NCBI GenBank assembly: GCA_035715365.1
Contig: DASTLB010000022.1
Span: 80,242 to 144,241 of the forward strand
DNA length: 64,000 nt
Source: Kofleriaceae bacterium
GTDB lineage: Bacteria > Myxococcota_A > Polyangia > Haliangiales > Haliangiaceae
Reading direction: 5' to 3'
In this document: positions 24,140-25,497 of the stretch, one piece after another
Position numbering within the stretch: the stretch's first letter is position 1
Layout: every line of letters begins with the position of its first letter
The notes under the pieces: generated by a model
What the model saw: the letters and a program-made list of their open reading frames with translations, nothing else
The model's database searches: none
What the model was told of the DNA's origin: nothing
Translations under genes and position numbers: made by a program

Positions 24140-25057
24140 TCACGGAAACCGCAGATCGATCACGTAGCGCTCCCACTTGCGCTGGAACGCCTTCATGTCC
24201 GGCTGCGCATCGCGGCCGAGCGTCGCGACGAGCGTCGCGTAGCCGGTCGGATCCTTCGTCTGGGCGGCGCGAAACGCGCGGTAGAAGTCGTGCAGCAGCT
24301 TCTGCTCCTGCAGGTAATACAGCAGGTAGCGCGACTGCGCGTAGTTCGTGCCGCTGTCGTCGTCGTAGAACTTGCCGCGGTCGAGCCCGGTCAGCGCGCG
24401 AAAGCTCGGCACGCTGCCGCGCCGGATCGACTTCTGCAGCCCGGCGAGCCGCCAGTTCGTGAGCCCGACGATGTGGCCGTCGCGCTCGGCGCTCTGCTCG
24501 AACAGCGAGCCGAGGCCTTCGTTGAGCCACGCCGGCGCGTCGGGGAAGTCGGCCTCGACGTACGGATGCACGATCTCGTGGACGAGCGTGCCGCCGCCGG
24601 TCGCGATGTTCATGAACATCGCGCCGTGCGTCGACGAGTAGAACCCGAACGGCGTGCCGGGGTCCTCGCCGGTCAGCGTCTTGACGCCGGCGTTGTACGA
24701 GGCCTCGGTCGTGAACAGGTAGATGTCGAGCAGCTTCGTCGGCCGCTTCGCGAAGAAGTTCGCCTCGAGCTGATCGGCCGCCCACCGCACGGTGCTCGCG
24801 CTGCGCTCGAGCTCGGCCGGTGTGCCGTCGCCGACGACGACGAACGGATCCTCGACACGGATGCTCAGCTTGCCGAGCCCCTTCGCCGCGAGCCGCTTGC
24901 GCAGCGCCGCGATGTGCTCGGTGTACTGCGCGTTCGTGAACGTCGCGCGGCGTCCTGGTGGCAGCGTGATGCGAACCTCGGGCGGCGGCGGCTTCGGATC
25001 CGACGCCGCCGTCGACGAGCACGCGGTCAGGAACGCGATCGCCACGATCGAACGCAT
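24140..25057 (-). CDS. HExxH zinc metallopeptidase lipoprotein (gluzincin-like; HEIVH…NEGLGS)
   Basis: Lipobox IAFLTAC. HEIVH followed 19 aa later by NEG. Lies immediately downstream, on the same strand, of the GG-leader peptide P2. Confidence 0.65.
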   Translation of the reverse strand: MRSIVAIAFLTACSSTAASDPKPPPPEVRITLPPGRRATFTNAQYTEHIAALRKRLAAKGLGKLSIRVEDPFVVVGDGTPAELERSASTVRWAADQLEANFFAKRPTKLLDIYLFTTEASYNAGVKTLTGEDPGTPFGFYSSTHGAMFMNIATGGGTLVHEIVHPYVEADFPDAPAWLNEGLGSLFEQSAERDGHIVGLTNWRLAGLQKSIRRGSVPSFRALTGLDRGKFYDDDSGTNYAQSRYLLYYLQEQKLLHDFYRAFRAAQTKDPTGYATLVATLGRDAQPDMKAFQRKWERYVIDLRFP

Positions 25058-25102
25058 GCCCCCAACGCTAGCGAACGAACGCGCGCCTGCAACCGGCAAC
25101 CG

Positions 25103-25285
25103 CTACGCGATGTCCTTACGCACGGGCGGGTCCGGATAGAACGGCCCGAGCGGGATCGACGGCTGCGGCTTCGGCAGGTTCGGCAGCTGCGGCAGCGTCG
25201 GGCGCGGCAGCGCCGGCAACGCGCTCTGGTTCGACAGCGTTCCTCCGGTGACATGAGCGAGCGTGGCGAGATCGATGATCGACAT
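25103..25285 (-). CDS. double-glycine-leader precursor peptide P2 (MSIIDLATLAHVTGG + Pro-rich core)
   Basis: ATG with a perfect AGGAGG RBS. 60 aa. Core is TLSNQSALPALPRPTLPQLPNLPKPQPSIPLGPFYPDPPVRKDIA. Confidence 0.65.
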   Translation of the reverse strand: MSIIDLATLAHVTGGTLSNQSALPALPRPTLPQLPNLPKPQPSIPLGPFYPDPPVRKDIA

Positions 25286-25497
25286 GGTTCCCCTCCTGCA
25301 CCGAGCGAGAGCACGCCGCATGCCCGTGCTCGACGGAGCGATTTCGCGAGCTTGTCGTCGGTGCGGCTGCATTCCGCGGTCGACGCTCGCGTCCTCGACG
25401 TGACATCGCACCCGCCGCAACATTGCTCAACACGGCTGCCCCGAGGCCCGTGGTAAGACGCCCGACCGTGAGCGACGCACCGCCGCCCCCCGCCCGC

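Follow-up and report, generated by a model that had tools for sequence, protein, structure and literature searches.

The described systems closest to the gene considered here are the class II bacteriocin and microcin precursors (leader model TIGR01847), which transporters with a C39 peptidase export; in class II bacteriocin loci, an immunity gene usually comes next to the precursor gene on its downstream side. Substrates of ATP-binding cassette (ABC) transporters with a peptidase domain (PCATs) share the leader consensus L(-12)xxxE(-8)L(-7)xxxxG(-2)G(-1), position -4 being hydrophobic (PMC6959990). In Myxococcus fulvus, a class II lanthipeptide is processed by a PCAT and then by MfuP, an M61 gluzincin acting on the core, and peptide, LanM, PCAT and protease are encoded in one cluster (PMC10885120). 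The gene analysed here, P2, lies in a 64-kb stretch (70% GC) of a Kofleriaceae metagenome-assembled genome, hereafter the window, and encodes a short peptide with a double-glycine (GG) leader directly upstream of a DUF1570 lipoprotein gene. Comparative analysis of the sequence indicated that P2 is a real gene and a member of a new, largely unannotated family of GG-leader peptides, and that its pairing with the lipoprotein, a predicted zinc peptidase, is probably optional. The locus comprises the following features.

25309..25325, minus strand: degenerate sigma-54-type -24/-12 motif GGGCATGCGGCGTGCTC that retains GG-N10-GC, 23 nt upstream of the start codon of P2
25292..25297, minus strand: ribosome-binding site (RBS) of P2, AGGAGG, 6 nt before the ATG, read from the sequence
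25103..25285, minus strand: P2, 60 aa, ATG 25283-25285, stop TAG 25103-25105 (open reading frame (ORF), RBS, codon-position GC and relatives)
25241-25285, minus strand: P2 leader, 15 aa, double-glycine; the remaining 45-aa proline-rich core ends in IPLGPFYPDPPVRKDIA
25058..25102, minus strand: 45-bp spacer from P2 stop to peptidase start, with neither a terminator-like hairpin nor a T-run
24140..25057, minus strand: DUF1570 gluzincin lipoprotein, 305 aa (PF07607, orthologue alignment, AlphaFold2 model)
25019-25057, minus strand: signal peptide and lipobox LTAC of the peptidase
24566-24580, minus strand: HEIVH of the peptidase, residues 160-164
24515-24523, minus strand: NEG of the peptidase, residues 179-181
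25498..27090, plus strand: proton-dependent oligopeptide transporter (POT/PTR2; PF00854, 3.5e-73; TIGR00924, 143.2 bits against a cut-off of 130.2)
22886..24139, plus strand: major facilitator superfamily (MFS) transporter, convergent with the peptidase, backbone member (Pfam and synteny)
27092..28102, minus strand: Pirin-family gene, backbone member (Pfam and synteny)

P2 (MSIIDLATLAHVTGG|TLSNQSALPALPRPTLPQLPNLPKPQPSIPLGPFYPDPPVRKDIA, leader and core) displayed GC contents of 0.66, 0.51 and 0.89 at the three codon positions, a coding-like pattern typical for genes of the window, whereas the in-frame extension upstream of its start (0.70, 0.63 and 0.72) was not coding-like. A word-index homology search with P2 alone returned no match, because the gene is uncalled in public records. 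An exhaustive HMMER search of 1.84 billion representatives recovered six end-to-end relatives of 56-63 aa with 49-63% identity (E-values from 4.5e-6 to 2e-4), and a profile built from these six extended the family to 33 clusters with sizes of 56-94 aa; a metagenome scan with a family alignment yielded two loci only. Family members have in common a leader of the form M-x-T-I-D-x3-L-x2-V-x-G-G, a proline-rich middle part and a conserved C-terminus, of which two forms occur, ..[TS][IV]PLGPFYP..(N/D)IA and ..FPPGSLDLP.RRDLA. At the DNA level, the reading frame was kept across seven loci, insertions and deletions came in multiples of three, and pairwise ratios of non-synonymous to synonymous substitution rates (dN/dS) ranged from 0.3 to 0.8, being below 1 in all pairs. 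It is because of these relatives, of the frame and dN/dS evidence and of the fit of the leader that P2 is considered a genuine family member. The kind of peptide is known; the family itself is new, and its ~33 sequence clusters of GG-leader proline-rich peptides come from uncultured soil myxobacteria, in which gene callers usually miss such genes or leave them unnamed.

The P2 leader conforms to the PCAT-substrate consensus with I(-12), L(-7), V(-4) and the terminal GG, the exception being a Thr in place of Glu at -8, where relatives P0124, P0126 and P0129 carry E or D. The cleavage motif, expected as Gly-Gly or Gly-Ala some 15-25 residues from the N-terminus, corresponds to G14-G15 of P2, and both columns are invariant in seven relatives. 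On the bacteriocin-type signal model TIGR01847 (15 residues), relative P0151, named 'bacteriocin' at NCBI, scored 16.3 and passed the cut-off of 15.7, while P0124 and P0132 each reached 14.3. Resemblance to class II bacteriocin and microcin precursors thus extends over the 15-aa leader ending in GG, its hydrophobic residues at -4, -7 and -12, the small size, the tandem pairs found in four loci (L089, L090, L091 and L095) and the TIGR01847 match of P0151. P2 differs from these precursors by a TIGR01847 score below the cut-off, by its core (29% proline, no Cys) with the conserved IPLGPFYP..NIA end, by the dispersed organisation of such genes with a sigma-54-type motif in front, and by a 64-kb window in which no exporter, accessory or obvious immunity gene was found.

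With respect to gene arrangement, a preliminary description of this DNA, made from the letters of the sequence, had presented P2 as a 60-aa GG-leader ORF with an AGGAGG RBS, lying on the same strand as and directly upstream of a gluzincin lipoprotein gene, and divergent from a POT gene 212 bp away. All of this was confirmed: P2 with its RBS, the spacer and the peptidase are on the minus strand, and 212 bp separate the P2 start from the POT ATG at 25498, or 182 bp if the alternative in-frame GTG at 25468 is used, whose product (VSD...) matches the MSD... N-termini of orthologues. The distance to the peptidase, formerly left between 3 and 45 bp, could be settled. The longest peptidase ORF would begin at TTG 25099, 3 bp past the P2 stop; the start is nevertheless placed at ATG 25057, giving a 45-bp spacer, because an alignment of 22 orthologues and the lipobox MRSIVAIAFLTAC both position it there. 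The metallopeptidase motif was retained as gluzincin, but the length had to be corrected from 300 to 305 aa and the motif spacing from x18 to HEIVH-x14-NEG, equivalent to HExxH-x15-E.

The peptidase passes the gathering threshold of the Pfam family DUF1570 (PF07607, clan Peptidase MA) with 24.1 bits against 22 over residues 159-270, matches Peptidase_MA_2 only weakly (16.4 against 32.4), is labelled DUF1570 domain-containing in the source record, is 100% identical to a protein of a Kofleriaceae metagenome-assembled genome and has more than 5,800 homologues. All of 23 orthologues carry H160, E161, H164, N179, E180 and G181 without variation (HEIVHPY...WLNEG), so that both the HExxH and the downstream Glu expected of a gluzincin as third zinc ligand are conserved. 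An L-x-[AG]-C lipobox is present, and at least 90% of orthologues retain its putatively lipidated Cys. The AlphaFold2 model (mean predicted local distance difference test score 84.5) displays a thermolysin-like fold of two subdomains, with M9 collagenases as best fold matches, followed by M30 and M1. Comparison of the peptidase profile with the PDB by sequence gave no usable match and no detectable solved relative, and a literature search on DUF1570 found no functional study and one incidental mention. Like the clan MA gluzincins (peptidase domains of M9 ColG, ColH and ColT and their Vibrio counterparts, M30 lugdulysin, M1 aminopeptidases and LTA4H), the protein combines HExxH with a downstream Glu, in a WLNEG-type motif as in M1. 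Unlike them, it has an HExxH-x15-E spacing, only 12-17% identity and no sequence match to Pfam M9, Pfam M1 or the PDB, and it is a single-domain lipoprotein of 305 aa without activator or collagen-binding domains. Membership of M9 was rejected, the likeness being in fold only. By its motif and modelled fold the protein is thus a gluzincin and a sequence member of neither M9 nor M1; it is best described as a predicted envelope zinc peptidase of collagenase/M1-like fold, which gives DUF1570 a structural assignment.

A paralogous subfamily (P0076, P0111 and P0117; 460-490 aa) was also observed in which a C-terminal DUF1570 domain is joined to an N-terminal Peptidase_C39_2 domain (PF13529). Such fusions are encoded in L006, L010, L013, L015, L016, L025 and other loci, from Polyangiaceae, Kofleriaceae and probably Planctomycetota (the last on shared N-terminal sequence only). 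Their ..DFCGEACVEM.. motif may hold the catalytic Cys, in which case a cysteine peptidase and a metallopeptidase would be united in one protein; no GG peptide was found near these fusions.

The genomic context was compared in 80 peptidase-anchored loci from species-representative genomes, together with contigs of the closest metagenomic relatives. A conserved backbone, Pirin-POT (divergent)-[patatin]-DUF1570-[MFS]-GreA, was recognised in ~22 Kofleriaceae/Haliangiales loci, with a rearrangement in L018. A GG/Pro-rich ORF was found directly upstream of the peptidase in five of these ~22 (the window, L091, L084, L022 and L037) and in none of ~60 more distant DUF1570 homologues, which belong to Polyangiaceae, Planctomycetota, Verrucomicrobia and Acidobacteriota and are in many cases fused to Peptidase_C39_2. 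In a neighbour-joining tree of the peptidase, the five peptide-bearing loci fell into three subclades (window with L091; L084; L022 with L037), and L017, sister of L022, is without the clean ~300-bp cassette of promoter motif and peptide gene present in L022 and L037. Across syntenic loci, including those without a peptide, the peptidase remained 57-75% identical with an invariant active-site motif. The peptide-bearing loci themselves are not uniform: the spacing from peptide to peptidase ranged from ~40 to 304 bp, the 304-bp spacer of L091 contains a second GG ORF, and L037 keeps a truncated second leader, MFTTISDLRSIV*. A search for terminal repeats flanking the P2 cassette, as a mark of a mobile element, revealed only short GC-rich chance matches.

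The possibility that peptide-less loci hide a degenerate peptide gene was rejected, since their gaps (35-125 bp) are too short. In the closest relatives L081, L082, L085, L086 and L017, patatin ends 85-125 bp before the peptidase. In four other loci no peptide gene would fit, the start codons of POT and DUF1570, two divergent genes, being separated by just 35-46 bp:

L002: 2396/2437
L003: 2039/2075
L011: 5938/5974
L012: 5924/5971

Given this distance between starts, each of the two divergent promoters in these four loci must lie within the other gene. As a further observation, L085 carries (6476-7017, minus strand) a gene of the peptide-modifying MbnB/TglH/ChrH family beside the MFS gene, at ~2.5 kb on the downstream side of the peptidase orthologue; the window showed no gene of this kind.

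The reciprocal comparison gave the same picture. Seven P2-family loci offered enough context to judge, and in just two of them, the window and L091, is the peptidase nearby. In L088 and L093 the P2 relative stands beside a convergent DJ-1/PfpI gene, and in L092 between a gene of unknown function and a lipoprotein gene, near RecQ, all three without DUF1570 nearby; in L095, a 390-kb contig, it follows an amidase and precedes GerE regulators, and a DUF1570 gene is absent within 5 kb. P2 relatives in L089, L090 and L095 are in tandem with a second GG peptide. Such pairs, in which the partner is a different GG-leader Pro-rich ORF 12-120 bp away, resemble two-peptide bacteriocins and have the following positions:

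L089: 519-910
L090: 530-946
L091: 207-560
L095: 5001-5431
L037: ~5810-5850, truncated leader only

Whichever of P2 and the peptidase leaves the neighbourhood, the other stays absent. Because neither gene accompanies the other elsewhere, P2 appears to be a facultative occupant of a variable slot rather than part of an obligate module; partners of a dedicated precursor-protease operon would be expected to stay together. The preliminary description had asked whether the two genes are conserved together, and had held that its pairing would fall if protease orthologues were never accompanied by a GG-leader ORF. Four other loci (L091, L084, L022 and L037) do show such an ORF, and conservation holds for five of ~22 syntenic loci, but for none of the ~60 distant homologues and for only two of the seven P2-family loci. 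A peptidase dedicated to the peptide is contradicted by ~17 of 22 syntenic orthologues and all ~60 distant ones without an upstream peptide, and by L017 without the cassette; the dedicated-module reading is thus only weakly supported by these comparisons. Nor is a three-gene maturation and uptake module supported by them: the POT belongs to the conserved backbone and is divergent from the peptidase with or without the peptide. A single adjacency is therefore insufficient for inferring a processing module when a peptide comes and goes in a conserved backbone.

The explanation that we regard as probable, with some reserve, is that P2, a small gene, acts autonomously and encodes a secreted double-glycine, Pro-rich peptide of bacteriocin or signal type, its pairing with the peptidase being optional. 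A sigma-54-type promoter immediately in front of P2 would drive its transcription; a C39-peptidase ABC exporter, with its gene at another place in the genome, would recognise the leader (I-12, L-7, V-4, G-2, G-1), cleave after Gly15 and export the 45-aa core. P2 would occupy a variable slot between the conserved divergent genes for POT and the DUF1570 lipoprotein, and conservation of the peptidase independently of P2 suggests a general function for the peptidase, separate from the peptide. Here, transcription may also read through from P2 into the peptidase, which is possible because no terminator was found in the 45-bp spacer. A scan of positions 23900-25700 detected neither consensus sigma-70 promoters nor intrinsic terminators, and the RNA fold of the spacer was no more stable than those of shuffled sequences (z +1.67). 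Co-transcription, as formerly suggested, is thus possible in view of strand, spacing and the lack of a terminator-like structure.

Other GG-leader genes of the window agree with autonomous genes of this type. At least four are scattered over it, namely P2 and three that stand beside unrelated genes, and a further small ORF precedes P3:

5220-5465, minus strand: fourth GG-leader ORF, MSNPIQSIEPDALATVTGG|THSSSS...VVYVGPRSWW, with a non-Pro core and its own sigma-54-type motif; homologue in L012 at 12377-12643
21381-21602, minus strand: P1, GG-leader ORF, MLTTTQPFSSISSLDLTAVVGG|CHKK..., with a Cys/Pro-rich core ending in ..VETSVQISGY
47197-47406, minus strand: P3, GG-leader ORF with PFPGPRNP-type repeats; in L090, a relative (836-946) directly follows a P2 relative as a tandem gene
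~47580-47714, minus strand: 44-aa Trp-rich ORF MTLALATNATRGWWGWCGWRHPRLDLPSTSPRPGDVDRFGLRTS, immediately preceded by a sigma-54-type motif and lying shortly before P3

The 44-aa ORF may be a degenerate or a different small peptide gene. Relatives of P1 (GG|CGKK..PPP..TEITTNVQMTGFG) were found near a GreA-like gene in ~11 loci, among them L001, L002, L003, L011, L012, L017, L018 and L022. Nearly all such peptide genes are preceded, 12-64 nt before the ATG, by a sigma-54-type -24/-12 motif. Exact TGGCAY-N6-TGCW sites in the window number five, against 0.23 expected:

5499-5514, minus strand
21615-21630, minus strand
47446-47461, minus strand
47732-47747, minus strand
56431-56446, plus strand

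Four of these five precede small ORFs, three with GG leaders and one being the 44-aa Trp-rich ORF. Over 972 kb (window and loci), 23 of 40 motifs were followed within 12-64 nt by a small GG-leader ORF, compared with 1.5% of random positions; these counts include orthologous copies, which are not independent events, and span four core families. Where the peptide is missing, no sigma-54-type motif was found in front of the peptidase. Members of the P1-like family have only 12-16 nt between the end of the motif and the ATG, so that their transcripts would be almost leaderless. Literature searches on myxobacterial double-glycine or proline-rich peptides, and on sigma-54 combined with double-glycine leaders, retrieved nothing relevant; the link with the sigma-54 motif and the dispersed organisation are offered as predictions. 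The motif shared by these scattered single or tandem genes offers a simple means of locating further members and of testing how they are regulated.

The locus had also been described as differing from known C39-ABC-dependent GG-peptide loci. Pfam searches of 42 ORFs in the 64-kb window indeed detected no C39 peptidase, ABC exporter or HlyD-type partner, so that neither a PCAT nor a C39 peptidase standing alone was retained as a candidate among the ORFs covered. But this is equally true of all GG peptides of the window, and because it is common to them the missing nearby exporter is no mark of a special maturation route for P2.

Several observations weigh against an autonomous P2 gene with an optional partner. 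Its motif, GGGCATGCGGCGTGCT, keeps GG-N10-GC and departs from the TGGCAC-N5-TTGCW consensus at three positions (the L091 counterpart reads CGGCACACCACGTGCT); P2 itself had no match to TIGR01847 at E<=10; and no exporter was seen within the 64-kb window, which is all of the genome that was read. The two genes share one strand with a short, terminator-free spacer, the peptide recurs directly upstream of the peptidase in three subclades and nowhere else in the peptidase-anchored loci, a recurrence at one slot that could reflect selection for linkage, and the nearest folds to that of the peptidase are those of collagenases, enzymes acting on Pro-rich substrates.

The recurrence at one slot keeps in play, as a rival, a functional pair in lineages that have both genes: once exported, the core would encounter the lipoprotein in the envelope, and the lipoprotein, co-transcribed from the P2 promoter, would trim or mature the core, or break it down in self-immunity or in turnover of a signal. 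The same-strand peptide directly upstream in five orthologous loci of three subclades, and the 45-bp spacer without a terminator, would fit such a pair. Precedents exist in the immunity genes that typically adjoin bacteriocin genes and in the successive action of a PCAT and an M61 gluzincin in M. fulvus, which differs in having all components in one cluster; here neither modification enzymes nor a PCAT are nearby, and the pairing seems facultative. Yet ~17 of 22 syntenic loci are without the peptide while the peptidase stays 57-75% identical and its active-site motif invariant, a sister genome is without the cassette, P2 relatives elsewhere are without the peptidase, and the spacing is variable. 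Moreover, PCAT or type I export in Gram-negatives bypasses the periplasm, so a lipoprotein facing the periplasm need not meet the peptide. Although worth retaining, a functional pair is on balance unlikely.

Rather unlikely as well is a nutrient-acquisition pair of peptidase and POT, in which the envelope peptidase would produce di- and tripeptides for uptake by the transporter, P2 being an unrelated insertion. The POT does belong to the oligopeptide:H+ symporter family, and the divergent POT-DUF1570 arrangement is kept in the syntenic clade with or without the peptide, with starts so close (35-46 bp) that overlapping divergent promoters are implied. But the two genes are adjacent in a single family-level clade only, and not in ~60 other homologues, patatin or other genes often stand between the two, L018 is rearranged, and synteny at such depth can be explained by simple inheritance.

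A broader scenario, which we consider quite improbable as a whole, is that Kofleriaceae run dispersed, sigma-54-controlled GG peptides, including linear Pro-rich antimicrobial counterparts, in predation or competition, and that in lineages such as the present one the collagenase-like DUF1570 lipoprotein was recruited by co-transcription from the promoter of the peptide, as an envelope protease to mature the peptide or protect its producer. DUF1570 paralogues with a C39-like fusion would fit a broader part of the domain in the processing of peptides. Eukaryotic Pro-rich antimicrobials (Bac5/Bac7, apidaecin, oncocin) have in common with the cores discussed here a short, linear, Pro-rich chain in which PxP/PRP-type units recur. 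This likeness is clearest in P3 (PFPGPRNPFPGPRDPLPFPGPRNP), whose PFPGPRNP-type repeats recall the mammalian members of the group; the analogy is limited by bacterial origin, predicted leader-dependent export, a net charge of only about +2 and a lack of sequence homology. Finally, that P2 is a spurious ORF of a GC-rich intergenic region with a GG pair by chance, as its absence from the source record and protein collection, its lack of a match to any curated family and its low-complexity, Pro-rich composition might suggest, is extremely improbable in view of the coding-like codon-position GC and strong RBS, of 33 clusters of colinear small relatives with conserved leader and C-terminal motif, and of the kept frame with multiples-of-three indels and dN/dS below 1 in all pairs.

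Elsewhere in the window, a Mla-type lipid transport operon (15350-18149, plus strand) encodes a STAS-MlaE fusion, a predicted ABC ATPase (from sequence motifs) and MlaD. It is followed at 18859-19395 (plus strand) by a gene whose small product resembles the prepilin N-terminal methylation motif weakly, with a score under the threshold.

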